Of a stretch of 64,000 nt of DNA, positions 1-53,995 are shown in pieces. The translations under genes and the position numbers were made by a program. Each line of letters opens with the position of its first letter. Position 1 is the first letter of the stretch. Under the pieces are notes generated by a model. It searched no databases. It was not told the DNA's origin and was given only the letters and a program-made list of their open reading frames with translations. Source of the stretch: Amoebophrya sp. A120 (Eukaryota; Protista; Dinoflagellata); the NCBI GenBank assembly GCA_905178155.1, contig CAJINV010000008.1, forward strand, positions 3,869,420 to 3,933,419, given 5' to 3'.

Positions 1-3000
1 CGCGTCGAACCCGCAGCTGGTTGTAACTCAGTCGAGTAATCTCAGCCAATTTGGGCCCGGCATGCTGGGGAACCAAATTCACACGAACGCGTCGTCAAAA
101 AAGTCCTCAAAAGGCACGTCCTCATCCGCGCACCAAAGCCCAAACAACGCCTTCGCGACCTCGTCCGGGGCGCCCGCGACAGGTCATAAGTTTTTTCAGG
201 GCCAGAGTGGCGGACACGGACATCTTCAGCACCAGTCGCAGCATGGCAGCAGTAAAGGGATCAGCTCTGCGAACCATTCGAAAGCAACTGCCACGGCAAT
301 GGGAACAGCGGCAGTAGCTGCTGGCTCTCCTCTCGCAGCAGCAGCACCGTCCTCCTCGTCGACACAGCCTTCGATGAAGTTTTCGTCGATCGCGGCAGCG
401 ACAGCGCTGCAGAAAAGAATAGCGGGGTTGACTAGCAGCGCGTCCTCTTCACTTTCCGTTGATGCACTGGTGAAGCAGAAAATCAGTCCACTAGGTGCTT
501 GTCAAAGTCAAAGTAGTGGAGCGAACCTCATGCAGCTCCACCTCGATGGTGCACCAAACGCGGATCAGCAGGATGGAAGCGCACCATCTAGTTCACTTTT
601 ATTTCTCGACCACCAGCTGGGCTCAACGTCCGCGCCGGACATTTTGAACCGAAACTCGACTACAACTGTGATATCTGACACCACTGGCACAGACACCGTC
701 TCTCCTGGCCTGAAACCGATAAACACGGAGGAGTCGCTCGACGCAGACACCACTTGGGGGGCGGAGCTCGGTGCGAGCTTGTCCGGGTCGATTAAAGATG
801 CGTGCGGGAAGAAGCCCGAGAAGCTAGACAAAACAGAACTGGCCAACATTCTGGCGAAAGCCATGATTCCCGCAATACATAGAGTGTATCAATTCATTTT
901 TTCAAGTCAGATGCTGTGAGTAGCAGTAGGTGAAATCAATAAGAACCTTAACGTAGCTTTTCCGCCGATGCATGATAATCTTATAGACCTACGAGATTAT
1001 GTAGTTGTTCTACTTCATCTCGTTCTCGTCCTGTGGATGACTTCTGCCACTAGTAGCCTGGTTAAGGTTGCGGCAGCTGTGACATGATAAGACTCTAGTA
1101 CGTGAAGACGAGAACAAGTAGATCATGACGTTGCAATGAAGAAGATGAAGAACCCGAAAATCTTCAAAATTTCAGGCAACGACAGAAGAAGGAGGAGCGG
1201 CGACGGCAGCGCGCGGCGATGTCGAGCACGACCTCGCTTGGGAGCAGTGTCACCTCGGCGTCGAACATCATCGCGGGCGCCACCCGAGCCTCGTCCGGCT
1301 CCTTGAAGAGCCGGAACTCCTCGGAGGTCCTGGTGTGCCAGTTCGACGAGCGCGGAAACGTCAGTGTCCTGGAACGCAACCAGCACGGCACGAGTAGTAT
1401 CCTGTGCAAAAGCATCGTACTCGTACTAATCGCAGTCATGCAAGACAAATTCTATTATGCAAGCTAAATCAGAATGACAAATTCCGTTTGTCATGCTGAG
1501 CTAATTTGTGTTGCAATACAACTACGAGTACGAAGATACTTTTGCAGTTCATAAGCAGACCCAAGGTTTTCTCCCTCGAAGACCTGAGCCGCAGAAGGGA
1601 CACGGAGGGAACGCTTGCGGATGTCAAGTCGGTATTGATACATATGAAAGATGATACTCGGGTGAACCGAATAGAAAAAAAACGCCAGCCAATTGCAATA
1701 GCAATGGCCGCGGTGGTGCACAAAAATTAGGAATTCTTGCAAGAAGAAGCAGAAACTTCTTTTCTTTTTGCAGCATGAGCATGACGAACAACATTTCTCT
1801 ATGTAGGTTCTTCGCGAATACCTAGACGGGCAGCGAAATAGCAGTAGCAAGCCGCTCCGCAAAGCCGCAGACCAGCAGAGCTCCTCGAGCCTTTTCCCTG
1901 TGGGTTCTTTTGACGAATTGATTCGCGCGGCCAGCAGCACCACGCCAATGACCGTCTCGGAAAGCTTTCATGCGCTGGGTTCAGAGGGAAATTTCTCACG
2001 GTCGAGCTCCATCATCGGTACAATGTTTGCGTTTGTGCATGGCGAATACATAGTGACAGTCTGATTTAGTTGAGTCAACTAAATGGCATTGGCAGCTTCT
2101 TCCCGATTCGCTTGTGATGGCGAGAAAGATGACGACGAGTCAACAAATGGCCATATACATAGAATGCCTCATTTTGCGTGTGCAGGCACAGGCTGTTATA
2201 CGAATTTTGATTCGAACGGAAGAAAAAAAATCTTCTCCTCGTGATGGCTCTTTACAAAAAAGCAAAAAAAAATCCACCAGGCTCCACGACGACGAGCGTG
2301 GCGGGGGCGGAATCCGCGTACAATTACAAGGAGCGCAACAGTCGAGGCCACCGCTTCCGAAAACACCACACCGGGGCCGGCTCGTCGGAGCACAGCTTCC
2401 AAAATTTCAAGTCCTCCTCCAGTATGCGCAAGGTGATTGGCAACCACAAGGCCCTTCTTCTTCGCAAGAACGGCCGCGAGATTGTGGTTTGCATTCCGGA
2501 GGGGTTAGCAGGTGGTGCGAACAGCAACAATTCCGCCGGGATGTTGAACACTGCTTCGAACAAAAATCTGATGGGCACCAGTACGACCGGCGGTGGCAGC
2601 TCGTGCAGCACCACGACAGAGACGGCGGGAACCAGGGGCGCCACAAGCAGGTCGTCCAACAAAAACTCGTCGCATGGTCCGGGCGTCAAGAAGTTCTCCT
2701 CCACCAACTCTTCCTATGCATTGCAAAAGTGTTGTGCCAGTAGAAATCAGAATCGCATCACAAATTTGGTCAGCATGAACAATCAAAATGGAATTTGTAA
2801 TGCTGGTTCCTAACTAACATGTACAGAGAAAAATCTGCCATGCGTGAAGATTGCCATTAGTACGATACTTTTGCACAGGATGCTTCCCGGGCCAACACGA
2901 CGGTGCACGAGCAGAGCTTCGAGCGCGAACACGTGCCCTTCGTCAGCGAGAGTCCGAGCATCGACATGAAAAGCACTAGTAGGAGTGTGTACAGCATGCA

Positions 3001-3127
3001 CCCGCCGTCACGAGTCCTCGGCGGGGGGCAGAGCAGCCAACAGTTCAACAACGCGGCAAGTAGCTCGTCAGTGAGCCGGGGCGGGAACAGTAGGACGATG
3101 AACAAGATGAGTGCTGTGGGGTACTAA
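1..3127 (+). CDS. 5'-partial spliced hypothetical low-complexity (Ser/Thr/Gly-rich) protein interrupted by two introners
   Basis: Frame is open from the window start through ORF 62..919. Inferred GT-AG introns 916-1175, ~1635-1806 and ~2018-2280, plus removal of 1398-1558 and 2715-2887, join ORFs 62, 1219, 1506, 2241 and 2903 in frame (HGTS|RPKVF; TNSS|RANTTVHEQ). No recognisable domain. Confidence 0.65.
1398..1553. mobile_element. Introner family A (TIR element acting as non-canonical intron)
   Basis: Ends TATCCTGTGCAAAAGCATCGTACTCGTA ... TACGAGTACGAAGATACTTTTGCAGTTCATA. Flanks AGTAG (1393-1397) / AGCAG (1554-1558). Removing 161 nt restores the frame. Reverse-complement homolog of 51612-51743. 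Confidence 0.85.
2715..2882. mobile_element. Introner family A
   Basis: TATGCATTGCAAAAG ... TAGTACGATACTTTTGCACAGGATG. Duplication CTTCC at 2710-2714 and 2883-2887. Removing 173 nt fuses ORF 2241 to ORF 2903 in frame. Confidence 0.85.
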
Positions 3128-3378
3128 ATAAAATTTGATTGCTTTGATAGAACAGAAACTGAAACTACTGCCGAGAATATTCATAAGAAACTGTATGGGA
3201 ACCACGAGTTGTTGTGACCTGCGTTCTTCTGACTTATTGCACTTCGTACTCGCTGTCGCTGCAGAAATTTATTTTCCACCGTTGCTTCAACATACGTTTA
3301 CGTTATATAGTTACTATCATCATTCACGATCTTCACCTCCCCAGCCCCATTTCCGAGCGCGGTGGTGGCAACCACGAG

Positions 3379-6300
3379 ATGAATAACAATCGGTCCAGCC
3401 GGCGCAGCGGCAACAACCGGAACAAGCACAACCGCAACCAAGACCACCACAACACCCATAGTCACAGTGGTGGGAAACGGCGTTCGAGCACCAGCAAAAT
3501 GTATGAAATTATGCAGCACGGCGAGGAGACGCCGCCTCCTCCACCCCCGTTGCACGCCCCGGCCTACACACCAACCGCGGGCGGCACGCCGCTCCAGGCC
3601 TACATGACCGCGCCAGGGAGCTACGGTCCGCCGCCCGGGCCGGCGCCCCACCACCACCAGCAGTACGGTCCTGCGGCTCACATCGGGCCTGCTGGTATCA
3701 AATGTAAAAATGTCTGGGTCTGGAAGAGTCATGCTGTTTTTGCATGACACAGAAGGTCTGGCATGGAAGCTCTAGCATCACAGGTTTCGAGAAGCTTCCG
3801 CAATGCCAATGCCGAATCCGCATGACAGATCCCCCAACTTGGTGACAGAAAGTGGGCAGCTTTTGCTACCTATGCATGAGAGATTTTTCTGTGTTCTGAA
3901 AGAGAGTATGTTGGAAAAAAAAAAATCTCAAAGAAATTCTACCGACGGCCTAAAGAGATTCTCCCTCAAAGACATTCCTCCTGCGAGAATATGCCAGGAA
4001 ACGACAAGAAGGACACGCCTGGCGCAACACGGGGCGAGCGCATCAGACGGGGCGCGCTTGGTGGGTTTGTTACCGGTCGCCACCGTCGCGCCGGCGCGCT
4101 GGAAGGGCTTGCGCTAGGCCGGGGCGCCATCGCTATTCAGCGCCTTGTTGGTGCTAGCCTGGCATCGGGGCGCCGGGCTGGTTCGCTGCCTTTTATCTTT
4201 CGCTCGCCCCTTTCCTTCGCCATGGCCGACGTGTTTCAGCCGAGGGAGGCTGCCCCCCTTTCCTATGAAATCCGACGCAACGAAACCGCGCGGCGTTGCG
4301 TGTTCCATCGGTTCGTTTTCTAGCCCTGCCCCTCGTTGCAAATAGAACGACGAAGCTTCCCACCTTCGCTACCCTCTCGCGGTTTTTGCTTCTGACGTGG
4401 CACGCCTCATTCTGTCCAGCGTCGCACTGTTTTGTTTTTGGGCAGCGGCGAGCCTTTGCGTGCGCTCCCGAAGCCTGAAGAGAGGTCGAAGCCGCGCGAG
4501 GTCTGTTTGCAAGTGTGACGCGCGGCCAAATTTTTTGTAAAGTATTGCCTTGCCCGCGCGGGCCCTCAAAGTTTTGAAAATAAAAGCTCTCCCCGCCCGT
4601 GATTTTGAGGCCCGCAGCCGGATCCGGGCGCGGGGGCCGAAAATTTTTTCTTCGCCCGCACGCAGCGCGCGCGCACCCACGCGGGAGCCGGGGACGGCAT
4701 TCATTCTTCGCCGCCGCTCTCTCAGTTGCGAAAAATCGTATTTCGCCCGCGCGGTTGAAGCCCGCGGCCGCCTGTGTGATATGTCTTTGGCCGGCGAGGG
4801 GCGAAGAAATTTTGTTTCCTCGCCCGCGCGCTGGCGTGCGCGCAGATTTTGATCACTCAGGGTCGGGGCCTACCGTGTTCGGCGTTGTTGCTTGTGCCGG
4901 CCGGGCAAAAAATTTTTTCGCGCTGCGCGCGCGTGCCTTTGTAGCGGTTTCGCAAAAGCGATCGCTTTGCGCCCGTGCGCGATTAGGGGCGGACCCGGAC
5001 AAGGTCGCGGCATCGCGCTCGACGTTCATCTTGTGCCGGCTGCACAGAAACGCGCTTGGAGCTACTGCGCCGGGAGTGCGAAGCTTTTTTCCCGCGCGCG
5101 GACCCTTTACTTCGCCCGGCCACACTGTTTGGCGCTGCTCCTTTTCGCTTTACGGAAATTTTTCGTCGCCCGCGCGCCGTGCGCGCGGTGGGTTAGTTTT
5201 TCTCAAGGCCGGGGCCAGCATTGCTGCCGTATCGATCGCACGTCAGGCGGGGCGGTGCGCGAGCGTGAGGCCCGCGGCCGTCTCTGCGATATGTCTGTGG
5301 CCGCCGAGTGGCGAAAAATTTTCCGCGCCCGCGCGTTCCTGCGCGCGCAGACATTGATCAGTGTCGGGGCCTACCGCGCTGGTCCGGTGTTCGTTGTTGC
5401 TTGTGCCGGCCGGGCAAACAAAAAAAAAAAATTCGCCCGCGCGCTGCGCGCGCGGCAATTTACCAAAGCCGGGGGCAACATACATACAGAGTCCGCCCGA
5501 GGCCGGTTTGCCGATCGGGCAGAGTTTTTTTCTCCGCCCGCGCGTTGCGCGCGCGAACCTTGACGAGGGTCGGCGCTGAGGCATCGCGCTCGGCGCTTCT
5601 GTGTCGGCTGCGGAAAAAACGAAATTTTTCGGCCGCGCGCGATGTTGGACGGGGCCGCGGCACCTCGTTCGGCGGTTCTTCGCCGGCTGCACAAAAACGC
5701 GCCCGGCGCTGCTTCGTCGGGCCCGACGCTGCTGCGCCGGGGGCGCAAAATTTTTTTCTCGCCCGCGCGCTGCGCGCGCGATTTTATCATGCTGCCGAGC
5801 CTGCGCCAGATTGTTCGGCGCCTCGCCCCCCTTTGCGCTTGGCGAAAGTTTTTCGTCGCTCGCGCGCGGCGGGCTTTCATGTTTTTCCTCGCTCGCGCGG
5901 CGCCTTACCGCCTGACGCTCAGGCGGTAACGCGCCGGGCGGATTTTTGTCTTTTCAGCTTGGCAATTTTTTTTTCGGGCTTGAAAAAATTCGGGGCGCCC
6001 ATTTCGCGTAAACCTGGCGGGCCCCGCCCCCCCTCATTTCGAGCATGTGGTAGTTGCGCTCTTTCGCAACCCTCCCGGGGCCAAGATTTTTTCTCTGTTC
6101 CTCGACGCAGCATTTCTGCGATTTTTCTTCGTCAGTCTCTTTGGGCCCGGCCCGCGGGCTTTTGAAGTTTGAAGATAGATTAGGCGGGCGGACTTTTGGG
6201 GTAGGGGGTGCGTGCCTTGCCAAGTAAAAAAACGAAGAAAGACGCTGGGCGGGTGTAGGAATAAGTTGGGGAAGTGCAGCTTGGCTGCAATTTGGGTGGT

Positions 6301-9300
6301 AGGTCGGGGCTGTGTAACTCTTCTCTGGAGATGCGAAGCGGCGCGCGCCTCTTCGCATCCCCACGCGCACATCTGTAGCTCCCAGAAATCGATCGCTTGT
6401 CTGTCGTGGGGCGGGCGACGATGCTCGTCGCTTCGAGCACGACCGCCATCTCCTGCAGGTCCGAAACGCGCTTCGGGGTTTCCGGCGCTGGATCTCCGTG
6501 TGAAGCGGAGCCGGACTATAGAGGAAGGAATTAGCGACGGAGACGGACTTTAGGGGCCAGCTTTGGGGGGCAAAACTAGCGATGGAAAGTGGGGTCGGGT
6601 GCGAAAGGTCGGGCGTTAGAAGGCCGCGTCGGGCGGCGTGTTGGGGCTTCGTCGTCTAAGATGGTCTTCTCGGATTTCTCTCCACATCAGGAGCCCCCGT
6701 ACCAGAGAAATGAGCAGGTGCGTGGACGAGGGGGCCGGAGGCTGTATCTACCAGGTAGATACAGCCTCCTGGGGGGGCCTGTAGCTAGGAGGCCTTCTTT
6801 GGGAGCCTGTATCTACCAGGTAGATACAGCCTCCTTCTACCAGGTAGATATAACCTCCTTTGTTTGGGAGCCTGTATCTATGTCCAGGTAGATGCAGCCT
6901 CCTTAGATGCAGCCTCCTTCGGGAGCCTGTAGCAGCTAGGAAGCCTTCTGCTTCTGTGGGAGCTTCTATCTACCGGGTAGATACAGCCCGCGCTAGGGAG
7001 CAGGGTAGGACTGGCGGCCTCGTCCCCACAGCATTAGCTCCCGCCGTGGGCGATTTTCCAGGATATTGGTGTTTTTTGCCCGAATGGTAGTGTTTAGCAT
7101 AGCCAATTCTGGCTACCCAGGGCAGTGGTTGCCCCAGCTGGGGAGGCTCGACAGCAGTCCCCGGCGGGACCGGGCAGGGGCGGGAGGATGGGGCAGGGCC
7201 GCGAGAATCTCTTTGCCAAAGAGATTCTCCCTCACCTGTGGAGAATCTCTTTGTCAAAGAGATTCTCTCACTCGGCGAGCAAGCACGGCCGCAGGAGATT
7301 AACAAATAAAAGGCCAGAAACGCCGCTCCTTGCTCAACCGACGTGCCTGCTCAAGTTAACAATCAAATAAAAGCCAAAAACCGACGTTCCTTGCTCAACC
7401 GACGTGCCTGCTCAAGTTAACAAATAAAAGCCAAAAACCGACGCTCCTGCTCAACCGACGTGCCTTTTCAGCAGAATCTCGCACCTTTTCCGGAGAATTT
7501 CTTTAGATTCCAGAGAATCTCTTTGAGCCTAAGAGATTCTCCGAGATTTTCTTTGCGGCAAGCCTAGTAAATGTCGAGAAAAAAAAAATACGGTAGAAAA
7601 AATCGCAAAGCATCTAGAAAAAATCAAACCGGGCTCCCACTGTAGAAAAAACCAGTCGGGTGCTTTGAGAAAAATCGAGAAGAATGCGCGAAAAATTTTC
7701 TCCGCGCGCGCGCTGCGCGCGCGGCGAGGTTGTTTCTCAGCGTCTCTGCACATGGGGCGCGCCCCAATCTCCGTCTGTCGCTTGAAAAATTTTCTCCGCG
7801 TGCTGCGCGCGCGAGTTTCCTGCCTCGGCCTTCGTCTTGGCCGCCGAGTATGTGGGTGCGGTTCTTCTGCACACAATGCGCGGCCCCGCCTGGCCGCGTG
7901 GCCCGCTTGTCATGTCGGAAAAATTTTCTCCGCGCGCTGCGCGCGCAGCGAGGTGTCTTGTCAGCGCTCCCCACACATGGGGCGCGCACCTACCTCCGTC
8001 TGCCGCTTGGAAAATTTTCTCCGCGCGCTGCGCGCGCGGCGAGATTGCTTCTTCGCGTTCCCTACACATGGGGCGCGCCCCCCACCTTCGCCTGTCGCTT
8101 GAAAAATTCTCTCCGCGCGCTGCTCGCGCGGCGAGGTTGCTTCCAAACGTTCCCAGCACATGTGGCGCGCCCCCACCCCCGTCTGCCCTTTGGAAATTTC
8201 CTCCGCGCGCTGCGCGCGCAGCGAGGTTGCTTCTCAGCATTGCCCACGCATGGGGGGCGCCCCCATCTCCATCTGCCCCTTGAAAAATTTGCTCCGCGCG
8301 TTGCGAGCGCGGCATTGCTACCGTTGCCGTCTTCTTGGCCGCGAAGTATGTCGGCTCGGATCGTCTGCACCCAAAGCCGCGCGCGTCCGCTTGGTTGCGT
8401 GGCCTGCTTTTCGAAAAAATTTCCCCCGCGCGCTGCGCGCGCGGCGAGGTTGCTTCTTAGGGCCCCCCACACATGGGGCGCGCCCGCGCCTTCGTTTGCC
8501 GCTTGCAAAATTTTTCTCCGCGCGCTGCGCGCGCGGCGCGGTTGCTTCTCGGCATTCCCCACACATGTGGCGCGCCCCCACCCCCGTCGGCCCTTTGAAA
8601 AATTTTCTCCGCGCGCTGCGCGCGCAGCGAGGTTGCTTTTCAGAATCCCCCGCACATGGGGCGCGCCCGCATCTCCGTCTGTCGCGGACTTGAAAAATTT
8701 GCTCCGCGCGCTGCGCTCGCGGCTTTGCTCCCTTTGCCTTCTTCTTGGCCGCGAAGTATGTTGGCTCGGTTCGTCTACACCCAATGCCGCGCGCCCCCGC
8801 TTGGCTGCGTGACCCGCTTGTCGGAAAAATTCTCCCCATACATTGCGCGCGCGGCGAGGTTGGTTCTCAGCGCCCCCCACACATGGGGCGCGCCCCCACC
8901 CCCTTCTGCCGCTTGAAAAATTTTCTCCGCGCGCTGCGCGCGCGGCCTTGCTGCCTTCTCTTTGGCCGCCGAGTATTTGGCTGCGGTTCTTCCGCACACA
9001 ATGCGCGGCTCCGCCTGGCCGCGTGGCCCGCTTGTCATGTCGGAAAAATTTTCTCCGCGCGCTGCGCGCGCGGCGAGGTTTCCTGCCAGCTGCCCCCACA
9101 CATGGGGCGCGCACCCACCTCCGTCTGCCGCCTGAGAAATTCTCTCCGCGCGTTCCGCGCGCGGCGAGGTTGCTCCTTAGCGTTCCCCACAAATGGGGCG
9201 CGCCCCCGGCTTCGCCTGCCGCTAGAAAAATTTTCTCCGCGCGCGCGAGGTTGCTGCCCAACGTTCCCCGCACATGTGGCGCGCCCCCACCCCCGTCTGC

Positions 9301-11919
9301 CCTTTGGAAAATTTTCTCCGCTTCTCAGAATTCCCCACGCATGGGGCGCGCCCCCATCTCCATCTGTCGCTTGAAAAATTTGCTCCGCGCGCTGCGAGCG
9401 CGGCATTGCTACCTCTGCTGTCTTCTTGGTTGGCCGCGAAGTATGTCGGCTGGCTCGGTTCGCCTGCGCCCAATGCCGCGCGCTTCCGCTTGGTTGGTTG
9501 CGTGGCCTGCTTTTCGCAAAAATTTTCCCCGCGCGCTGCGCGCGCGGCGAGGTTGCTTCTTAGCGTTCCCCACACATGGGGCGCGCCCCCGCCTTCGTCT
9601 GTCGCACGCTTGGAAAATTTCCTCCGCGCGCTGCGCGCGCGGCCTTGCTGCCTCTGCCTTCTTCTTGGCCGCGAAGTGTGTAGGGTTGGCTACCCTGCAC
9701 CCAATGCGCCCGCTCCCTCGCTTTGCTGCGCTTCCCGCTTGTCGGAAAAATTTTCTCCGCGCGCTGCGCGCGCGGCGTGGTTGCCTCGCCGCGTTACCCG
9801 CGCCCACCGCGCGCTGCGCGCGCGGCTTTGTTATTTCTCTTTTCTCGGCCGCGAGGTCCGCTTTGTTTTGCACACCCAGCGCGCCCGCCCCCGCCTGGTT
9901 GCGTAGGTGGCGGGCCCGTTGGCCTGAAAGGAAAACGAACTTTGTCCGCTTGCAAGACGAGGCCGCTTCGTTCTCAGCGTTGCCCACACATGGGGCGCGC
10001 CCCCATTGCCGTCTGGCGCTTCGCGGTGCTGGGGCTTCGCGCATCGCTTCGCGCGTGCGCGTGTATTCGGCTTTTCCGCTTCTGGGTGGAGGTCTTTTGA
10101 TTTTCCCCGGAGGTGTTTGATTTTTTCTACCGTATTTTGGAGGTTTTCGGCCGCTGGCCTCGAATGGGCGGGACGAGAAGACTTTCGAGAAAAAGCGAGA
10201 ACTTCGAGAAAAAGTGAGAACTTCTCGAGTTCTTGCCATTTTCTCGCTTCTCTCGGTTTCGGACGAGTCCCGTTTGATTTTTTCTACAGCTGTAGAAAAA
10301 ATCAAAACGAGGCGCGTGCTTCTTGTGAGAAAAATCGTCGTCTTTGTGTTTTCTCGTTTGATTTTCTCTTTGTATCCTTTCTCTTCTTTTTTCTCTTTTC
10401 TTCTCGTTATGATTTTCTCTACATATTTTTGATTTTTTCTACCGACACTAGAAAAAATCAAATATTTTATGCGAGGCGACTGGCAGGCATGTTCACAAGT
10501 TTGTCTGCTTCCAGACCCAGACATATTAATTTGCATTGGATAGCTGGGATCCAGCACCACGGAACCACGTATTACCCGACACCCGCGCCAACGCCCACAT
10601 ATCACATGGATCCAATGGGAAATTACCAGCAGGCTCTGGGGAACCCCGCGCAGCCGTATGTCTACATGCAGGTATCTATTGAAGCTTAGATTTTGACCTA
10701 TCAACAGGACATCGATGTTGCTGGTGCTTTTATGCAGTTTGTTGATGCTGTTAGTGTTACTGGAGCTTGTGCTTTCAAATTTGCAACTTCCTGTGACTTT
10801 GTGAGCCAGAAATATATTTTTACGGAGAGCACGACCAATCTTGCGCTATTAACGCTGTGCGCGATCTTTCGAAGTAGGGTTGTTTGAGCCCAGGTGAAAA
10901 TTTTGACAATGAAAAGAATGCCGTCGCATTTCTTTGGTCCTTTTTGTTTACTTCTACGCTCCTACAAAACAAAAGTCAAATAAGTATAAAGTGGAAGTGC
11001 GTATCCAAAAAACAAAAATTGACTCCAGATTCCGTCGGCTCCCCAGGTGGTTTACCACCCCCTTGGCGGGTATCCGCAGATTACGCAGCTGCAGCCAATG
11101 CCGGCCAACTTGCAGCCAGCGCAAGTGCAGCAACTCACGCAACAACCGCCGCCACTAGGGCCACCTCAGCCGCAAAGTAACCCGGCGACGAGTATCAGTA
11201 TAACAAGTCCGAAGCAGCAGCACCACGCTGCTACTTTGAACTTGGTTGCTGCAGGCGGTGGCGCGGGACCACAAATGCCCTCTTCAAATAACGCGGCGAC
11301 ACAGCAGCTACTGAATCCGCTGGATTTGATCCCTCTCCCGTCCGGCGGCGACACCTGCAACAGCACGAGCTCTGCGGGAAATAACAGCACGATGACCGGG
11401 ACCACGACCATCCATGCGTCCTCCTCCACGTCGTCTGCGGGAGCGCCGGTCGTGGTCCCAGCTGCAGGAGCAGGTTGTGCCCCGCCGCCGATGGATCACA
11501 TGCAGTTGCTGCAACAGATCGCGCAGGGGGCCGGTACAACAACTCTCGGCGGTGGAGCTACTGCAGCCGCCTCATCAACATCCACCGCACAGCATCAGCA
11601 GCTGCCGCCACAACTGCCGTCCACGGTTGCAGCAGCTGTCGGAGGAGGAGGAGCCCCCGCCGGGGGTGCACCAGGAGCACCCGGCGGGCCACCAGTCCCG
11701 CCGATAAATCCGCAGGAGCTCTTGGGTTTGATTCCGCGAGAGCACCAACTAATCGGCACCATGGACGCGCGGGGCGGTATCACGTTCTTCAACAACGCAC
11801 TGCAGTCATTGACTGGTGGACCTGCAGCGGGAGCTCCGCCCTCTGGGGGTGCGCGTGCCGCTCCGGCAGGCGCGCCGGGTGGTGCAGCTGGCGGGGTGGC
11901 TCGGACTGGTCCAGGGTAA
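3379..11919 (+). CDS. Pro/Gln/Gly-rich hypothetical protein; exons ~3379-3695, 10548-10671, 11047-11919
   Basis: Removing 3696-10547 joins HIGPAG to IQHHGTTYYPTPAP with the same composition and frame. GT-AG intron 10672-11046 joins VYMQ to VVYHPLGG. The 3' end may continue via a GT near 11917. Confidence 0.7.
6737..6988. repeat. Cluster of ~5 palindromes of (C)TGTATCTACC-A-GGTAGATACAG(CCTCC)
   Basis: Perfect 16-bp arms with a 1-nt spacer at 6737-6769. Degenerate copies at ~6806, 6836, 6872 and 6967. Confidence 0.85.
7299..7464. repeat. Three tandem ~57-61 bp repeats
   Basis: Units start at 7299, 7356 and 7417: TTAACAAATAAAAG..CCTTGCTCAACCGACGTGCC. Confidence 0.9.
7685..9830. repeat. GC-rich satellite, ~20 units of ~91 bp and ~130 bp
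   Basis: Each unit begins GAAAAATTTTCTCCGCGCGCTGCGCGCGCGG. Short units carry CACATGGGGCGCGCCCC; long units carry CTTGGCCGC(G/C). Flanked by TAGAAAAAATC(A) motifs at 7590-7630 and inverted TTTGATTTTTTCTA motifs at 10115-10440. Confidence 0.9.
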
Positions 11920-14161: not shown

Positions 14162-17100
14162 ATGGCACCAGCAGAGCAGCAACCGTCCTCCGGTCCCAGA
14201 AAACAACAAGGTGAAGAGGAAGCTCCGCAAGAATCTTCAATCGTAAAGGACCGGACCGTATCGGTTGACACCGAGGAGCTGTACCCCAATCGCACGGAAA
14301 GCGTCGGTATGTATTGCAAATATGTCTGGGTCTGGAAGAATGCAAGATTTGTCATGCTTGTCTGGCATGACTGTTAACTCTGTGATGCTTAGGCGCGAAA
14401 AGACGCACTTTCCTGTCATGCAAAAACGAAGCCTGCCATGCGGAATACGCAACACACGGGAGCATAGAAACTTGTCGTGCTTGGTCACCTATTGCAGTGA
14501 GCTCATTATTCACAGAGTTGCATCACAAGTTTCCAGACCCAGACATTTTTGCAATGCACAGTCGCCTCTCTCTTTTCCGACGAGCGTGCGCTGGAGCAGG
14601 TCGCCGCGAATGTCGCGGAGAACGCAATTTTTGGGGCGGACAAGGCTGGCGAGGAAGTTTTACACACGACTGCGGATCATGTTCATGATGCAGGAGCAGG
14701 AGGGGCACGATTAGCAGTAAATCAACTTCCTGGCGATCATGATCATCCTCGTGAAGATGTTTGTTCTGCTACCACCGCGCTCCCGTCTGATACTGCAACG
14801 GAAGCAGCACCTCCAGCAACTGCTCAGGCAGCAATTCAGGGATTTGGATTTGCAGCGGCCACTGAGGATGAGGAAACTACAACAGCATTTCCACCAGTTG
14901 ACGGCGAGCCAAGTAGAACAACAGGCGCAGACGGGGGCAGCTCGCAGCTGCCAAAGCACTCCGTTGCTGCACGTCGACAGGACGGCGCTGAAAGTTATGA
15001 ACTAGAGGAAGTGCTGATGTCCACCGCATCGGAGGCGGAAGAGGTCATGCTCGCACGCGTCGCCGCGGCCGTGGTCCACCAGGTCGAGGAGAAGGTGCTA
15101 GGAGGGACGGGAAAAATGGTCGCGGCCCCGGGTCATGAAGTAGATCAAGATGATGGTGACGCGCGAGGGGCTCCTGTACAGCCACACCAGACGACACCTC
15201 CAGGAGATGTTGATCATGGAGCGCCAGAAGTTGTAGCTGCGCGATCCGTAATTTTTGAAGAACAAACGGCAGCACGTGAGGATACTAGTAGAATAAAGCA
15301 GGAGGATGCAGCTCCTTCCGCGAAAGGCACCTCGAGCGTGAAAACCACCCGCCGGGTCAGCTTTCGTGACGACGAGGAGGAAGTCCTCGACCTCGTTCAA
15401 GCACCTGATCTCGGAGTGCTGGGGGCACAGCCGCCAGCAGAGAACGACGTGGACAAACCGCGAGCAGAAGAAGAGCCCGGCTTCTCCGTCACGACAGAAT
15501 CGGAAACGAAAGCGTCTAGTACTGCAGCTGCAGGGCAAAATACTGCGAATTATGCGAACGCCGACCTGGAAAAGTCGGAGCCGACAGAGCTTTCCCTGAA
15601 AATAACAGCGCAAGATCAGATCGCCACTGAGGAGGAAGAAACAACACATACACAATTGAAACAACAACCGGAAATAAAGGACGAGTTATTTTTCGATGAC
15701 GACAGCAATAAAGTCGAAGCTGTTACCGCAGGTTTCTGCCCGTCTTCTTCCAGTGGGTATACCACCCCGCGCGATGTCGGAACGGATACGCAGTCCTCCG
15801 GGGAGGAGACCAACAAGCAAAACAAACTCGTCGCAGCCGAAGTCGTCGCAGCCAGTTCTGACGTGGCAACAGCGGCGCTGACAGACGACCGGCCTTTGAA
15901 AATCAGTTTGGAGGTACTGTAATAAATGTGAATATTACAACAAATCCCCACATTCGCACTTGACTTGTTTAGGCATAGGCTCACCATGCTCGATGATGCG
16001 CGTCGATGAATCTTTTGCACCGTGCTGACTATCATGTAACGTTTGGGTTTGTGTCAACAACGTAAAGCTAGCTGATCATGATTGCAAGCATTGCACCACA
16101 ACGCATGCACATTTTGTTTGCAAAAAAAAACTCAGATCTCCCGTCACGAGCACGGTTCGCGCATTGTCGGCGAGGTTTCCGCTCGCGAACTCACCGACCG
16201 AGACAAGCGTGTTTTAAACGAGGCACTGAAACTCACCATCGACCAGTGGCAAAGCACCAGCACGGGAGCTGCAGCAGCGCTTACAAGAACTGGTGGATCA
16301 TCGACTTCTAGTTCTACTACAGGTGATGGCTCCAGTACAAAAGCGCCGGGTACGGCGCTTGGCGCGACCACTGCGACGACTTCCACGGTTGTGGGACCAT
16401 TAGTACACGACCACGAGTTCTCCCAGCCGGAGTTTTGGACGCAAAAGTCGCTCGCCTACGATTCCTCCGAGGATCCTGCGACCAGTCTGACGCTGACCTT
16501 AAACTGCGAGAGCGGCGAATTGCACGGGCTCAAAATCAGCGCGCGCAGCCAGGCCGAGGACATGGAGAAGTTCGTCATTGAGAGGGCGGCCACGCCGCCC
16601 TTCGTGGCGACTTGTTCTGCGGCCGCGGGGGTGCTGGGGGACGAGGTGCAGATGAAAACGAAGAGGCTGGCGCAGGAGGAGTTGCACAAAATGATAGAGG
16701 AGGAGGAGAGAAGAAACAGGGCGGAAATGGATAGGTACGGAAGGTTGATGGAATTTCTTTGTGCATTTTGTAGTATGTCACGCGCACCAAGGTAGAGATT
16801 GAAGTGGAAATCTTAATCTTCCAATGAAAGCGAACATCAACATTAACATTTACTGTTTCCGTTTCCGTATCAAGAGCAACAATGCGACTGCAAAACGTCG
16901 TCCGGGATGAAGAATTTCACGAAAGAATTCAAAATCCGGACAGAATCCTTCACGAGCGCGCGCAACAAGCGATCAAGATCCAGGCTGCCGCGCGCGCCCG
17001 ACGCGACCGGCGGCGGGCCCAGAGCCTGAAGATGCAGAAAGAGGAAGAGCGCCTCCAGGAGTACGAACGGGTGGCTTTCGCGAAGCGGATGGAGCGGGCG

Positions 17101-18747
17101 GCCACGAGGATTCAGTCGCTGCATATCCAGGAAAAAACACCCATCCACATCCAATTTGTCATGCAGAACACGTATAAAATCCTGTGTCTGTCATGCAAAA
17201 AATGGATGGGGATGGGTTTTTTTCTGTGGATACTGCACCGGGGGAGGCGGGCACGGAGCTTGACGGACGAAATGCGCGAGATGAGGAAGAACGGTATAAT
17301 CACTATCATCTCGTCAATCTTTTGTGAAGGTGACCACTAGAAGATGGGTCCGCAACCATGATTATATCGCGCACAGTTATTCTTGGCAAAAGAATTCTAG
17401 GGAAACCCTCTTGCCACAAGATGAACTCAGTCTTTATCATTTTTGCTTGTTATACGCTTGTGCACGGAGATCGTGCGGTTGTTGCAGCTTTTGCAAGGTC
17501 CGGATGACTTGTGAGACTGACGTACAAACAATGCGGATAGTGCACTAATTCTAATACAAATACAATACTTTTATCGCAGCCGCCTCCGAAGCGATTCAGT
17601 CCCGTTGGCGGGGAGCGGAAGCTCGGGACTTGGTGAAAAACCTGAAAGAGTACAAGCAGAACCACGACCCGCGGACCATTCGAACGACAATGGCCAAGGA
17701 GAACCAGGCGCACAAGATCATGTCAAACTCTACAAGGTATCATGGGCATTCCTCCTCGCAGAAGAGAAAAGCGAAGAAGAAGCTTATCTTGCTGGACCTG
17801 CACCACGTGCACCACCACCACCATTTCCATCAGGTCAAGGCCGGCACTTCTAACCAGAGCGGGGCAGCTGTAGGTGGTGCGAGAACGTCTGATGCTGCTC
17901 CTCGTGGTAGAGAACAGCAATTAGATGCCACGTTGAAGGAAAAGCACCAGGCAGCAGTGGAGCACCAAGCCACACAGTTGACGACCAAGACGTATGTCGA
18001 AAATAGAGCGGAATCTCTCTACCAGGGGAACTACAAAAAATTCATGCTGGACAATGTACGCGTTGTTCTGTTTCCTACGATCATGGAGCTTCATAATAAT
18101 CTATCACTATCAGATACTGATAGCTTATAGATATTTCTGTGTAATAACAGCTGGCTGCGACACAGTTGTCTTGGAAAAATCAACAAAAGCATGATCATGA
18201 ATTGAAAACTCCACCAACATCGCAGCCTCCCTTCGAGTCCGCGGAGGAGTACTACAGTTACGCCTCGAAGCTGCCCGGTGACAAGCGCCTCGACTACCTT
18301 TCCCCGTACCAGTACACTGCGAAACAGCGCGGAAATTACTATGGAGCACCAGCCGCGGCGCACCACAACGTAGCGTCGACCTCCTCATTGAATGGAGGAG
18401 GCCATCATGCGGCCGGTAACGCAATTGGCGGCCCTCGTCCCCCCGTGCACTCGAACCCGCACAGCAAGAGTAGTACGAAAGAGCGGTGGTTTGTGGACGG
18501 GAAACACAACATGACAGCGCCGAGCTCCAAAAGCAGCATGCGCAGCAATAACAAAACCTCCAGCCACTTAATTCGCAGTGTCGACGGGAGCAGCAGCGGC
18601 GCGGCGGGTGGTGCAGCTGGTGGAATGAGCCTCAGCAAGAGTTCATTTTACGGCAAGAAGGTGGACAAAACGCTTCAAAAACAGGCCGGTGCTGCTTCGA
18701 GAGGGTCACCATATGCGGAAAAACGGTTTCTACCCAAGATAGTGTAA
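14162..18747 (+). CDS. Large acidic protein with three IQ calmodulin-binding motifs
   Basis: IQAAARARRDR, IQSLH|RGRRAR (only after removing 17124-17237) and IQSRWRGAEAR. GT-AG introns 15914-16135, 16735-16874, 17294-17579 and 18056-18150, plus introner 14308-14565, keep the frame. Confidence 0.75.
14308..14560. mobile_element. Introner family B
   Basis: TATGTATTGCAAATATGTCTGGGTCTGGAA ... TTCCAGACCCAGACATTTTTGCAATGCACA. Flanks GTCGG / GTCGC. Removal joins ORF 14162 and ORF 14549 in frame. Confidence 0.88.
17124..17232. mobile_element. Introner family C (short, in-frame, stop-free)
   Basis: TATCCAGGAAAAAACACCCATCC ... GGATGGGTTTTTTTCTGTGGATA. CTGCA duplication at 17119-17123 and 17233-17237. 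Splits an IQ motif. Confidence 0.85.
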
Positions 18748-18792
18748 AAAGTGCATGGTTTGTCCCTGGAGCTCGCTGTTATTTGTGGTGGA

Positions 18793-19831
18793 AGACTTTT
18801 AGCATCCGGCCACCTCGTACTTGGAAATTTGTTCAAAAGGAGTTCAAAGATGAGCTCAAAGCGAGTTCAGAACGAGTTCAAAGCGAGTTCAATAATTTGG
18901 ACCAAGTCAGTTGACCTATCGCAAAAATCGCAATGAGCCAGCTACCTTTTGTCGAAAGTCAATTGCCTTTGCGTGGAGTTTGCGAGAAGTCAATTGTCTT
19001 TGTTCGGAATTTGCATAAAGTCAAGTGCCTTGATCCAAATTTCAAGAAAAGTCAACTGACTTCTCCTGAAGTCGGCTCATTTCGCAAACGGGCAGCAAAG
19101 CTTTGAAGTATGTGCGCGTTTTTTTTTGCTAGGGCTCCGAAACGACCAGAGGCGCGCGCCGTTGGTTTGCGTTTTCCCGTGCCGCCCTGCGATTTCGGGA
19201 ACGGCCCGAAGACACGGGGACGACAAGACGCAAAAAGGGGCGCAAAGCCGCACAGCAGAGGCTCCCGTCTGCCTTCTCCACCCTCAGATCTGTTCTCGGC
19301 GACTTCGCGACGGGATTCAAGGGTGGGGAAACGGGGCGGGCGCCACTGCATCTGCAGGAGAAGCAGAAACTGAGCGGCTGGGGCCCAAGTCGGACAGGCA
19401 TGGTAGTCCGTTGGCTTCCCCGCGATTGAGTAGGTGCAGGGGCGTTGCTTGCAAAAAAGTCAATTGTCTTTTTCAAAAATTCGCAAAGAGTCAATTGTCT
19501 TTTTCAAAAATTTCCAATAAGTCAAGTGCCTTCTTGCGGAATTGGTAGGTCTTCTTGGTTGACTTTTATTGCGAAAGACAGAAGCCAGTTGACTTTTCTG
19601 GAAAAGGCTCGCAGAAGTCAATTTACTTCTCATTGACTTTGCTCAGAAACGAGAACGCCACTGACGTCGCTCGGAATCACACGAAAGCGAGGGGTCATTT
19701 GACCTTGCTCGGAAATCGCCAAAAGTCTTTTGACCTTTGCAATTTTTTAGGTCAACTGATAATGGGCAAATTATTGAACTCGTAATGAACTCGGAATGAA
19801 CTCGCTTTTGAACTCGTGCGCCAGTCTTTTT
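18793..19831. mobile_element. Non-autonomous inverted-repeat element flanked by a 51-bp direct duplication
   Basis: 18742-18792 equals 19832-19882 with 1 mismatch. Subterminal IR CGAGTTCAATAATTTG..CAGTTGACCT / AGGTCAACTG..CAAATTATTGAACTCG. Many AAGTCAA / TTGACTT motifs inside. Confidence 0.75.
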
Positions 19832-21381
19832 GTGTAAGAAGTGCATGGTTTGTCCCTGGAGCTCGCTGTTATTTGTGGTGGACGAGTTAAGCGCGCGCGT
19901 CACTGCGGTCGAGAAAGTAAAACTTGTGGCTGCGTACCCATTGATGCGTGTGGGAAGGAGGTTGCACGACGAGGAGTTGAGCCAAGTGGTCGCACACGCC
20001 GCGCATCAAAAGGAGCAGGAAGCGTAGCCACAGTGCTGATGCTGAAGACTATACTCGTCACACACATGCTTACAGTTACACTTAATACACGGCGCAGCTT
20101 CAACAACATGCTATGGTAGTACACCTTCCACCGATCCCGTTCCCGAATGAGCAACCTTTACTAGTAGTACTTTGCCCTGGTGGAGAAATAAATGAGAAAT
20201 TAATAGATGAGTACTGTATCTGTATGATGTTTGAATTTGATTCAATTGGCTCCGACTCGTTTAAGTTTATGTTTCGCAACAAGAACAACTTCAGCTTCAT
20301 CATGATCTCTCTTTCTTGTTTCGGTTTCACCAGCGCTAGCGCTATACTTTAGTTAGTAATAAAGGCAGCAGCTTAAAACAGCACTGTTCACTGTGGGCTT
20401 TTCTTGTGCTGAGATCATCTGAATTGGGTCTACTTTGCTGGTGAGGAGCAGGAAGCGGACCCACGAGCAGTCAAGTGCTCGACACCTTGTACAATTATGT
20501 TGTGAAGACCCTGACGAACAAGAAGAAAATGAACGCGGAGGCAATCAATTTGAAAGATGAAGATCAGGGTGGAAGGACCGAACACGCGGCAGCAAAAATC
20601 GCGACGAGCCTTTCCGCACTGATTGGGAGCGAGTGGCCGACCGCCGCGCGCTTGTGATAGGCGTGAGACGAGGTTTTATATTCATCGCTGGGCCCGCGCC
20701 CGTTATTTTGTTTGACACGCCGCCCCTCGCCTCGGCCGCCCTGATGTCATGCATTGACTGGGCTGGAGGTTCAGTTCCGGTTAGATGCAACGGCCCGGGG
20801 CCAGGACCCCACCGGCCCATGAGACTGATTTCTGTACAGAAATGAGGCCAAGGAGCGCACGCCACGCGGCGTTCTTCTCAGACATTGTTCGCGGTGATTC
20901 TACGCGACTGTCTCACCGGTGTGCCTTGGCCAGGTACCAGAAGAGGACAGGCACGAGCTGTGGCGGCCCCTCAAGAAGTGCCTGTCGCCACAGTGTAGTT
21001 CGGAGCCAAGCTGGAGATCATGTTGGCGAGCCCTAATATGCCCTTCGCCTGGTTTTCGTTTTTCGGTGCAGTCGCTGTCGCTGACCTCAACCTGTGTTGA
21101 TCTTCGTTCAGATAATTCAGTCAGTCCGTAATACGAACCGCATGCATGCGGCCGCGCTGTGTTTGATGTTGGCTGTCTGCTCGAGCAGGCATGATTTTCT
21201 TTCTTTCAGACTTTTCCGTCCACATTTCTAAAACTTTTTTCGCATCTCGTTCTTCTTTTGTGACTGGCGCTCGCAAGGGAAAGAAGCCGCGGAGTTGTGA
21301 CTTTCATTTTTTTTTCGCCAGAACTACCAGCCTTAGATTTACTCAGCACAAGAGCCAGAAGAGGAAGAGAAGCGAAGTATC

Positions 21382-24300: not shown

Positions 24301-24639
24301 GGTGCGGAAGAGGATATCAAATGTAAAAATGTCTGGGTCTGGAAGAATGCAACTTGTGATGCTGCATGTGGATTCCAGAAAAATCTGTATTGCATGAGTA
24401 CCAAAAGGAATGCAATTTTTGCTACGTGGAGAGGGCATTTGTCATGCGGAATAGGCATCAAGAAGCTCTAAAAAAATCTGTGATGCTAGGGCATGCATCA
24501 CTGACATCAGGGCTCATGCAAAACGTGCATGGCAATTGTTAGAATCTTCCAGACCCAGACATTTTTACAGTTGATAGAGGAGGCGTATTACCCATATGTC
24601 AGCCTAAGCTTCTCCCCTCTCTCCGTGAAGGAGGTATAA
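21382..24639 (+). CDS. ATP6V1C: V-type proton ATPase V1 subunit C (Vma5/ATP6V1C family)
   Basis: Conserved motifs [76 protein letters not shown] and YYPYV. Exons 21382-21480, 21612-21857, 22048-22140, 22351-22569, 22860-22904, 23206-23269, 23532-23704, 23942-24101, 24287-24314, 24582-24639. Confidence 0.95.
22570..22854. mobile_element. Introner family D in V-ATPase C
   Basis: Perfect 32-bp TIR TATCCTGAGTAAAAACGTACCCACACCAGAGT. AGCAG duplication at 22565-22569 and 22855-22859. Removing 290 nt gives SAKQ|FQKL. Confidence 0.92.
23270..23526. mobile_element. Introner family B in V-ATPase C
   Basis: TATGCATTGCAAATATGTCTGGGTCTGGAA ... TTCCAGACCCAGACATTTTTACATTTGATA. GGGTC duplication. Removing 262 nt gives VRKGL|KECKCSIREFSY. 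Confidence 0.92.
24315..24576. mobile_element. Introner family B in V-ATPase C
   Basis: TATCAAATGTAAAAATGTCTGGGTCTGGAAG TIR (1 mismatch). GAGGA duplication. Removing 267 nt restores the C-terminal EEEAYYPYV. Confidence 0.92.
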
Positions 24640-29900: not shown

Positions 29901-30177
29901 GCTCGCTTCTGCAGGGAGCTACTGCTTGCGCTCTGCTTCACCATAACTTCGACGCCGACGTGAATGACAAAGAACCCACTTATATAATAGATTTTGGGTT
30001 GGAAGATATTTTTTTATTTCCGTGTTTCGTACTTATTTATTTTCGCTTTCAGTTTCGCTGTCTCTTTGACCTACCTAGCGCTCTTTCTTGTACTACGGAA
30101 GTACATTTTTCTTTTTGTGAATATTAAGAGTATTGAAGTACTTTAATAAATTCTGTATTTTTATTTCTAGTACTACG

Positions 30178-37302: not shown

Positions 37303-37422
37303 TCTACCTCAATTTGCATTTGCATAAAAAAGAAAACATTACTGACGAAGAAAGTAGAGCCCTCATCGTGATCTGCATATCAACATGATGTGGAAGTGCG
37401 CCTGCGCGACTAGTACGAGCAA

Positions 37423-51000: not shown

Positions 51001-53995
51001 TGCTTCCAGTCTGGATTTGGATGCCGTTGATGCGCCGCAGCCGCGGGACGAGGACGACAGTGCCACTGGTGTTGATTATCCGGCACCTCCACCTCCTCCT
51101 CCACGACCCCTCCTCTTCGACACCGGCCGCATTCTAACTCGCAGCAATACTGGCGCGCCTTCGCCGCCACCCCCGGACGACGTGAAGCGCGCTTTCATGC
51201 GGGGAGGTCCGGCGGCGGCAATAGAAGGAGGTGTCCGGCCTGGTTGTAGTTCTTCGGATGATCTCGAAGCATCCCGCGCGGGAGGAACAACAAAAGCGAA
51301 CACCACGAAGGTGTTGCAACGTCGAGCCTCCGAGCGTTGGGCGGACATTCCGGTGGGAACAGGAGAGGATCAGCAAGACGATGAGGACGTCGAGCTGATG
51401 TGTGGTCTTTTCTCTACGGGAGATAGAACCCCGCCGCCGCCACCGGAGACCCCGCCGCCTGCGCTTGTCTACAGCAATAAAAAGCAGGATGATCTCGTCG
51501 TCGTCCCGCTGTCGCTGCGCCAGCACTCCTCTCGCACACTGCAGGCCTTGAACCTACACCTGGCGGAACCCCTCATGAAAAAAGCGAAGGCGCGACAAGA
51601 CAAGCTTTTACTATGAACTGCAAAAGTATCGTACTAGTATAAATCGCATGACAAATGGAATTTGTCATGCTGTTTCACCTTGGGATGAAGATTTGGAATG
51701 CATGACTGCGATTACTACGAGTGCGATACTTTTGCACAGGATATTTACTTGACACCAGCAATCCTGCAGCGAATCGGCCATTGGGTCCGGCGATGGTGGT
51801 ATCAAGAGCAAAAATCCCCCCGCCCCATATCAAAGCGGAAATCTGTGATGCAGATTTGTGGCCACAAATCAGCTTTGTGATGCTAGAAGGCAAAAGATGC
51901 GGACTGTAGTGCTATCTAGCGTGGGAAAGTGTTGCATCTCCAGCATGTTGACACGAGGCAACTGGAAGTGGGAAACAGCATGACAAATTGCCTGCAATTC
52001 AGGCCACAGCTGCGTCTCTTGGCCTTCTAGCAATACAAGTCGATTTGTGTACTCAAATACAGCATCACAAATTTCGTTTCCGATATGGGGAGGGGGGATT
52101 TTTCTTCTTGATAGGTGGACGTGGACGTGGGCATAAAGAAGACTTCTGACCTCCGGATGGAACAACATCAGCAAGTTGCCTTGGCCGATAGAAGTGGTCT
52201 TCAGGAAGTGGAAGGAGAAAATTTATCCGAGGTGGACGACGGTGCAGCATCAACATCATCTGGTGAACCGGGTTGGTTTCCCCTCGATTTCGACTGGAGA
52301 AAAGGGAAGACATCGAATTGGAAATCGCCACTGCGTTTGGGCTTGCTTGCGGATGATGAACGTACACGTCGTAGCTCCTTGTTGACTCAGATTCACGGCG
52401 AATTGGTAGAGGGTCCTTCATCCGTCCGTGATTCCCCCACAGCAACATTTTCCCCATCGTTCCCCATTCTCCGCCGCGAGGATCGGCAGTATACACCGCT
52501 GCGGCTCGGCGTCGGCAGCAAAGTACTGTCCGCTCTGGGCGTTGGGACAGTAGTCGCTGATAGAAAAAGTAGCCCATCAGCTTCTAGTACATCGAGTTCT
52601 TCGGGCGGCGCAATGAAGGAGGTGGAGCAGGGTGTAGAAGATGTTCAAAGTCAGCGTCAGCGAGGCAAACACGCAGAAAGGTTCGCAACTAGTACAACTG
52701 GTGCTGGTTGCACTACAACCGTGGCAGGCGTGTTGGAGGACGGCTGCAAGAACTCTAGCGCAGCTGCGCCTTCTTCTCCATCAACTACACAACGTGATCG
52801 TGAGGATGCGAAACAACTACAACATCACCTAGGAACGATATCAAAGATCAAGAAGCAGAAACGCCGAGCCCAGGAAATCAAGCCCGATGATCCCGAGGGC
52901 ACGCCGAAGCTGACGCCCAAAGGCATGCTGCGGCAGCTGAGCGAAGCGTGGATGCCCTCCGCCGGTTCCTCCGGTGCGGGAACGGAGTTGCATGATTTGG
53001 CGCAAGTACTATCGCACGAAAGTTTTCTCTCAGGCGACAAAGACAACTCTTCAGCGGACCACCTCCGGCAAAATTCATCAACGAAAGCGAAAGCAAACGG
53101 GACAAGTACTGGGCCGGGGCAGGATCAGCGAGTTGCACATCAGCAGGTTATTTCGCGTGACCCTGGTCATATTCCTGCCTACCACAAAACAAGAGGCGCC
53201 GGCTCTCGACATTTCCATCCCGAAGACTTGGATGTTGAGCTGCCTGAGGATGCAGAAGCAATGACTCCGGGTTTCAATGCTACGAAAATCACGGCTCGCA
53301 TGAATTCTGTCGGAAAAACTGATGTTGACCTGCTTAACGACGGTTTTATGCTACCCGAACAGGCAACCCCTCCACCAACAGCAGCGACGATCGAAGCAGG
53401 CCGCTCTATCTTCGATCCGCTGCCGCTCAGGGCAAGGACACCCTCGGGCGAAACGATTGTTCTTTCTGCCGCTTTGGAAAGTGTTGTCTCCTCGTCTTTC
53501 ATCGGTGGTCCAGGATCTTCAGCATCTGCTTCTGAGCAGGTGCAGCTTGAAAGGAAAAAGGATGGCCAGATGCAAACAAGAACCAATAGCAAGAAAGCGA
53601 AATCCACATGGTCCAAAAACAAAAGGGAAAGGTTTCTGTCAAGTGCGTCATCTTCTGGCGCTGGAGGTGCACCCACCATGGGAGCAGCTGGCAGTACAAC
53701 GACGAATGGCGCGCATCAACATCGCGAACAACGAGATGAGGAGGCAGGTGGCGCAAAGACTCCAACTTCCAATTACACGACGTCCACGGAACGCGTGCGG
53801 AGGCCGCTGATGCCCCAACGTCGCAAGGGGTTCTGGGCCGATTCCTTGGCGCATGAGACTGGCAGCGGCGATGGGGGAAGCGACACGGACTGCTGTCCAA
53901 ACGGGTTTGAGGAACTTTCCGGGTACACGTGCGTAGCTGCGGGCGGGTCGAACGCAGCTGATCCACGGTACTACAGCCAAACAAATCTAGATTGA
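48041..53995 (+). CDS. Large low-complexity protein with N-terminal hydrophobic segment, coiled-coil-like stretch and CCCH-like zinc-finger motif; exons 48041-51611, 51749-51799, 52119 onward
   Basis: Motif NPGSAGHPYACFGDGCKYF..GCKDGDRCTRCHICCW at 50597-50743. Two introner removals fuse ORFs 48005, 51721 and 52115 (KLLL|DTSNP..AMV|DVDVG). Confidence 0.82.
51612..51743. mobile_element. Introner family A
   Basis: TATGAACTGCAAAAGTATCG ... CGATACTTTTGCACAGGATA. TTTAC duplication at 51607-51611 and 51744-51748. Removing 137 nt restores the frame. Confidence 0.9.
51800..52113. mobile_element. Introner family E
   Basis: TATCAAGAGCAAAAATCCCCCCGCCCCATATC ... GATATGGGGAGGGGGGATTTTTCTTCTTGATA. GGTGG duplication. 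Precise GT-AG excision is possible (51796-52114). Confidence 0.9.

Follow-up and report, generated by a model that had tools for sequence, protein, structure and literature searches.

How can one and the same repeated element be removed from coding sequence whichever way round it lies? The question arises in a stretch of 64,000 nucleotides from Amoebophrya sp. A120, hereafter the window, in which related elements interrupt genes of the same strand in opposite orientations. Spliceosomal introns have a donor, a branch point and an acceptor in fixed order, and the original prediction took orientation-independent removal as a sign that a symmetric hairpin or double-stranded DNA is recognized. The analysis described here suggests another basis. 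The elements are exonic, non-coding, transposon-like insertions that occur in both orientations and are likely spliced out together with one copy of their target duplication, probably by a factor that reads the same ends either way.

Elements and host genes in the window

The ends TAT-N7-AAA and TTT-N7-ATA, together with a 5-bp duplication, are found in ten window elements and correspond to the motif published for Amoebophrya sp. A120 introners (TAT, seven free bases, AAA; PMC7789003). Family A is represented at 1398-1553 (orientation +; duplication AGTAG at 1393-1397 and AGCAG at 1554-1558), at 2715-2882 (orientation -, in the same + strand gene; CTTCC) and at 51612-51743 (orientation -; TTTAC). 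Family B includes a long element at 3696-10542 (orientation -), the B1 copies at 24315-24576 (orientation +; GAGGA) and 43255-43522 (orientation +; TGCTC), removal of the latter leaving 431 + 87 open codons on the + strand, and the B2 copies at 14308-14560 (orientation +; GTCGG/GTCGC) and 23270-23526 (orientation +; GGGTC). The B2 copy at 23270 and a family D element at 22570-22854 (AGCAG) both interrupt the V-ATPase subunit C gene on the + strand. The same ends delimit a singleton at 17124-17232 (CTGCA) and a 314-bp element of another family at 51800-52113 (GGTGG). Most window elements carry stops in the reading frames. The assignment of the host genes to one strand was confirmed: all ten catalogued window elements lie in a + strand coding context, cross-validation included. 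A search of the window against Rfam gave no match.

The window also holds repeats of other kinds. An element of about 1 kb at 18742-19888 has long, internally repeated inverted arms (18858-19808) and is bracketed by a pair of direct repeats of 57 bp with 95% identity. A 1.19-kb element at 45869-47058, outside the long + strand frames, has inverted arms of 58 bp and is flanked by what looks like an 8-bp duplication (ATAAGTGG). Further tandem repeat blocks, with units of about 430-460, 157 and 54-120 bp, occupy 56861-58152 and 60957-62900.

The B element that begins at 3696 is a compound of 6,847 bp. Its first 206 bases are close to one B subfamily; as assembled, they give way to a stretch of foreign repeat DNA, rich in GC and about 6.6 kb long (3902-10490, the right edge being approximate). 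Its right end lies at 10493-10542, with GCTGG on either side of the element (3691-3695 and 10543-10547), a perfect duplication and the only duplication-matched pair among the unpaired element ends of the window. The alternative that the element is truncated or one-ended is ruled out by this right end with its perfect duplication and by the recorded protein P0006, considered next. A 91-bp tandem array lies within the insert at 7700-10000, and there are hairpins at 10273-10307 and at 10425-10465; window 3907-4246 recurs with slight differences in contig X5, a second copy, so the insert may be a low-copy mobile element.

P0006, a protein on record that is encoded by the window, maps on the + strand across the elements at 1398 (A+), 2715 (A-) and 3696-10542 (B-). 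The 3′ part of this 1,961-residue protein occupies 2-11916 and is divided by five GT-AG introns and three element introns. The latter are 161, 173 and 6,852 nt long, in each case the element plus 5, and none of the three allows a GT-AG register. An ab initio predictor is unlikely to have produced a model with such junctions, and the published gene models for Amoebophrya were built from transcript alignments (PMC7789003); P0006 may thus derive from transcript alignments, although it is a record and not a set of reads. No Pfam family was found in this host gene. In window 1-4300, the exons around 1398, 2715 and 3696 have no RNA cover in the runs X9, X10, X1 and X5, which makes no statement on expression.

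A second host frame on the + strand (47921-53995) is interrupted by the elements at 51612 and 51800. When both are removed with 5 bases each, it reads through as 1230 + 642 open codons, 1,872 in all, whereas removal with 3 or 4 bases shifts the frame. Removal of the 51612 element from the transcript is thus suggested by the reading frame. Its host has no Pfam family, and a search of proteins of 351-2000 aa turned up neither a homologue nor a protein on record.

Opposite orientations within genes of one strand

The claim from which this analysis began, that 1398-1553 and 51612-51743 are copies of one family in opposite orientations, holds for the interiors of the two elements. With 35 nt trimmed off each end so that the inverted ends are excluded, the pair scores 57 reversed and 30 forward, the best of 200 shuffles reaching 34. 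A global alignment of 1398 with the reversed 51612 has 115 identical bases among 131 aligned (87 of 113 in the forward direction). A profile built on 38 other A copies, interiors only, assigns 1398 to the + strand (E 2e-18; other strand 7e-6) and 51612 on the - strand (E 4e-18; other strand 6e-7); it also places 2715-2882, which the original prediction had not mentioned, on the - strand (E 1e-14; other strand 7e-4). The proposed antisense position of the 3696 B element was likewise borne out, with reversed and forward scores of 61 and 18 relative to 24315, 48 and 21 relative to 43255, and 34 and 16 relative to 23270 (shuffles at most 25). The corrected family graph gives one orientation to 14308, 23270, 24315 and 43255 and the opposite orientation to 3696. 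An earlier graph, in which B was divided 49:53 and 14308 and 23270 lay opposite to 24315, proved to be an artefact of a 567-nt element pair bridging B1 and B2, and under a B1 profile 49 of 49 B2 copies fit better when reversed relative to the labels of that graph.

Orientation was counted in the window and 133 further loci (L001-L133), all from one related assembly and picked by the B-end pattern. The element search, which required 10 of the 12 fixed end letters and a duplication with at most one mismatch, returned 293 elements, and 2 in shuffled DNA. The 5-bp duplication is exact in 242 of the 293, and the families (160, 40, 29, 29 and 9 members) are repeated at unrelated sites, with one duplicated flank pair among the 293. 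The host strand was taken from a self-trained exon-intron model run on element-free, masked DNA; it gave 224 strong calls, 69 of the 293 being weak and left out, and placed 196 junctions in coding state. Orientations are consistent within families (0 of 3,981 edges inconsistent in B and 0 of 469 in A). Exonic copies are divided by orientation 61:40 in B, 9:18 in A, 9:10 in a 213-bp family, 9:15 in D and 2:3 in a 322-bp family, and the B subfamilies, assigned by consensus, 35:27 in B1 and 25:12 in B2. Four-fold cross-validation kept the strand sign in 215 of 215 cases and gave 57:40 for B, 8:16 for A, 9:9 for the 213-bp family and 9:15 for D. In 12 Pfam-anchored loci the strand calls agree 44/44, with B at 14:11; 20 of 150 exon pieces matched and only model-agreeing frames were used, so that this check confirms those calls and gives no error estimate elsewhere. 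Pairs of similar copies, which are not independent of one another, fall into same and opposite orientations 239:227, 146:159 and 36:49 with rising identity. Both orientations are common in the window and the 133 loci, at a ratio nearer 60:40 than 50:50.

The motif TGTSATGC, with one mismatch allowed, is present in all 192 elements tested, at 21.6 per kb as compared with 3.1 per kb outside. Orientation is slightly uneven with respect to it, 84:60 toward the motif on the sense strand (p 0.055), and given this bias the interior of the element may matter a little. The motif recurs every 30-45 bases in all families, is 7-fold enriched and is polar (about 4:2 in B and about 5:0 in D).

Reading frames provide a measure of how much is removed. 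In a frame test carried out with the orientation labels of the earlier graph, the element plus 5 was strictly best in 49/94 and 49/115, as against 14 and 16 for the element plus 4 and 10 and 12 for the element plus 6. A 1,045-bp element with family A ends, an insert and a perfect duplication (L070 1178-2222) restores the frame on the - strand when removed, and opposite-orientation copies occur within single intact frames at L043, an NRAMP transporter gene, L051 and L056. Host genes elsewhere in the sample include that for the largest subunit of RNA polymerase II (L031/L032 256-5777), with at least three elements in coding state, one of which is 82% identical to window 51800 and opposite to it, and a calpain gene (L064 5525-5881) in which family A copies separated by 57 bases lie in opposite orientations. 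The first duplicated base is spread unevenly over the codon phases (84, 54 and 49 of 187), which may be an artefact of frame choice.

The NRAMP gene at L043 contains seven elements in both orientations, with perfect duplications at 7/7. Opposite orientations are seen between copies 3001 and 4318 (154 bits, 197 nt) and again between 3728 and 4671 (135 bits). Removal of the element plus 5 at all seven sites leaves 489 codons whose product is 41% identical to P0001 over 410 columns and aligns ungapped over residues 81-330, which span all seven junctions. Contig X1 joins 3341 to 3609 and 3722 to 3987, skipping 267 and 264 nt, and X2 also joins 2995 to 3264, skipping 268 nt, in each case the element plus 5; both contigs have a depth of 4-6 and carry no strand, their RNA nature is a guess, and the RNA strain differs by about 5% in exons. 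The last 33 bases of X1 fit the exon beyond the 4318 element, and from the length of the contig and a shared variant at 4609 we infer a 275-nt skip of that element. Contigs X7 and X8, in which exon variants of X1 recur, behave like low-depth DNA and contain exon-element junctions at 2446, 3728 (30 element bases), 4318 (14) and 4671 (30-33), the overlaps at 3728 and 4318 being below the 31-base rule. A reversed match of 65 bits (E 2e-20) marks the copy at 3728 as B-, that at 4318 is B+, and one copy per orientation thus seems to be present in DNA and absent from the RNA-like contigs of the same strain. The DNA-like runs do not reach the exons of copies 3001 and 3348, and these copies may be missing from the RNA strain's DNA. 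The five NRAMP matches of this gene (L043 2187-5430) include cellular-type proteins of 394-432 aa with 35-39% identity, one of them named Mn2+/Fe2+ NRAMP, and a lateral origin of the gene is possible.

Ends, predicted stem and proposed route of removal

Conventional splice signals are scarce at these junctions. In 165 of the 196 exonic copies no register yields a GT-AG, GC-AG, GA-AG or AT-AC junction; a GT-AG junction could be formed at 11 of 192 sites (3.9% expected) and GH-AG at 24 of 192 (11.3% by chance). Across the 192 sites base composition around the target does not differ from background at any position, and between the two strands there is no branch-point-like or U-run asymmetry. Mismatches in imperfect duplications are synonymous in 13 of 33 cases, and the register of the cut within the duplication is not readable from them. 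The 5′ end and the reverse-complemented 3′ end, on the other hand, share one base profile, in which TAT (1-3), G (9) and AAA (11-13) stand out most, so that RNA has UAU-N7-AAA at the 5′ end and UUU-N7-AUA at the 3′ end in either orientation. Because inverted ends give RNA the same linear signals both ways, orientation-independent removal need not imply that a symmetric hairpin or double-stranded DNA is recognized. What is supported is that genes of one strand carry both orientations, near 60:40, and that removal is exact.

The arms are conserved and predicted to pair. In 88 B copies they diverge from the subfamily consensus at 3.3% of sites, compared with 11.2% in the interiors, although binding by a transposase predicts arm conservation equally well as a role of the ends in splicing. 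The predicted stem is equal in both orientations (median 24.8 and 24.5 end-to-end pairs in 192 elements), predicted fold z values are -3.6 for 1398, -7.3 for 51612 and -2.6 for 2715, and folding energy does not differ between strands (-89.3 and -89.2). In family A (1398 and 51612) the stem is predicted to begin near position 8, leaving the outer 7 bases unpaired. Tests for selection on the stem had modest power: there is no sense-strand preference for G-U (119, with A-C at 109, in 166 elements), private arm changes keep the pair in 22 cases and break it in 33, and positions 4, 5, 7 and 15 of the arms vary independently, without covariation. Positions 10 and 14 do covary (100 where 74.7 are expected, and 130 where 97.5 are expected), which would fit either pairing or shared subfamily descent.

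We favour, at slightly better than even odds (roughly 55%), a mechanism in which RNA splicing removes the elements, the ends alone define what is removed, a sequence-specific factor aided by pairing of the arms sets the cuts, and catalysis is probably by a spliceosome lacking U1, the loss of which in Amoebophrya has been described (PMC7789003). RNA of either orientation presents UAU-N7-AAA and UUU-N7-AUA ends; the two arms would pair into a stem of about 25 bp, drawing the ends together; and a putative end-binding factor, guided by the conserved UAU and AUA, would position the cuts and probably feed the spliceosome. The interior would be largely ignored, its inversion, its family identity and a 6.6-kb insert all being tolerated. 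Neither target sequence nor orientation would be needed, and almost any exonic insertion would therefore leave the protein unchanged. The absence of standard junctions, the absence of target choice and the removal of the 6,852-nt compound element support an unusual, end-guided mechanism of this kind. Orientation, target, family and interior length do not decide removal, which places the signal in the first 14-30 bases of each end. More tentatively, there could exist a dedicated RNA excision pathway, blind to orientation and target and relying on a domesticated end-binding factor or a non-spliceosomal nuclease and ligase, that recognizes only these 14-30-nt ends over 0.1-7 kb and removes exactly one duplication, making exonic insertions silent.

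Two other readings assign the ends a different role. The terminal stem could itself be the substrate of an endonuclease and a ligase, independently of the spliceosome, with the end letters no more than a transposase legacy. We consider this rather doubtful, even though strong stems are predicted in both orientations, most copies lack a standard junction and strand asymmetry of the branch-point-like or U-run kind, the 6.85-kb element is removed, and the nonconventional introns of euglenids offer a precedent model (PMC11282704). A stem recognized by shape sits poorly with the lack of a sense-strand G-U excess and of covariation at arm positions 4, 5, 7 and 15, and family A, with its outer 7 bases predicted to be unpaired, is removed exactly all the same, so that a sequence mark is called for. 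Recognition might instead take place on DNA, where a protein resembling a domesticated transposase would bind the double-stranded ends, mark the element during transcription and pass its boundaries to the splicing machinery. The full strand symmetry of the ends, the lack of wobble bias at the RNA level and the presence of TGTSATGC in all 192 elements, resembling subterminal binding sites, would suit such a protein, but transposition alone gives the same end symmetry, and we judge this improbable.

The remaining alternatives call splicing itself, or the reality of both orientations, into question. The internal eliminated sequences of ciliates are removed from expressed DNA, are bounded by TA and leave one TA behind. 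A comparable programmed excision of DNA in a transcribing stage of Amoebophrya would produce RNA of identical appearance, and the elements do start and end with TA and restore the pre-insertion sequence exactly when removed; it is nevertheless very improbable, because the DNA-like X5 contig 1494-3717 crosses both junctions of the 2715 element unchanged at a depth of 25.6, like that of the flanks (one or two samples), exon-element junctions are present in X7 and X8, and what is duplicated is 5 bp of free sequence and not TA. We give as little credence to the view that one orientation only is spliced well, the other copies being retained, lying in dead genes or reflecting wrong strand calls or assembly error. 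Opposite copies share the single intact frames of the L043 NRAMP gene, L051 and L056, the 44 strand calls in Pfam-anchored loci all agree, the window elements mostly carry stops, and P0006 removes A+ and A- alike; set against this are the lack of raw RNA read cover for the copies named in the window, the 69 of 293 strand calls that are weak and the mild orientation bias.

Relation to known introners and introns

The preferred reading, splicing guided by the ends, concerns elements that are themselves already known (PMC7789003; PMC12130899), as are two-orientation introners as such. Features that characterize non-autonomous TIR DNA transposons (MITEs) are present: terminal inverted repeats, a target duplication of fixed length, small size and lack of coding capacity. 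Those of ciliate-type internal eliminated sequences are not, as the element is found in DNA-like contigs at single-copy depth and the sequence kept is a 5-bp duplication instead of TA. The elements resemble the A120 introners of Farhat et al. (2021; PMC7789003) in their end motif, direct repeats at the junctions, non-canonical junctions, repeated families and predicted hairpin, and their lengths resemble those of the A120 TIR families of about 149, 214, 252-260, 278 and 320 bp that are among the families listed, of 58, by Gozashti et al. (2025; PMC12130899). Whereas the repeats described by Farhat et al. are 3-5 nt long at variable positions, we find, taking the full element ends, a fixed 5-bp duplication, and the random choice of target sites, the internal motif common to the families and the tolerance of inserts several kb long go beyond that description. 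The literature searched yielded no report on the orientation of Amoebophrya introners relative to their host genes; supplements, subscription papers or theses may hold one.

Most introns of Amoebophrya are non-canonical, and the way in which they are removed, apparently in the absence of U1, has been called an open question (PMC7789003, PMC11282704); the properties measured here narrow how this splicing could work. They provide a short list of end motifs for reporters, pull-downs and sequencing of lariats or circles, and explain how exonic copies can become very numerous, including those in the genes for the RNA polymerase II largest subunit and V-ATPase C. The nonconventional introns of euglenids, an unrelated lineage, are similar in their non-canonical junctions, inverted ends that pair, here by prediction, with the outermost bases free, duplication-like repeats, wide length range and likely MITE origin (PMC11282704). 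Circular excision products are reported there, and, unlike euglenid introns, the present ends share one genome-wide sequence signal.

Spliceosomal introners in either orientation have been described in Aureococcus anophagefferens and in Polarella glacialis classes 1, 2, 3, 6, 7, 8 and 10 (Roy et al., bioRxiv 10.1101/2020.10.14.339549), in Aureococcus also in PMC10228655, and a method of introner detection has permitted opposite-orientation copies (PMC9860276). Like the present elements, the Aureococcus and Polarella introners are TIR elements with target duplications that serve as introns whichever way they lie, one orientation being favoured. One or both of their splice sites, GT, GC or GA and AG, are supplied by the end of the element or by a duplication under constraint (e.g., GHN6). 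In Amoebophrya, by contrast, GH-AG is available at chance level only and the target is unconstrained, and the elements seem to need no lucky target site.
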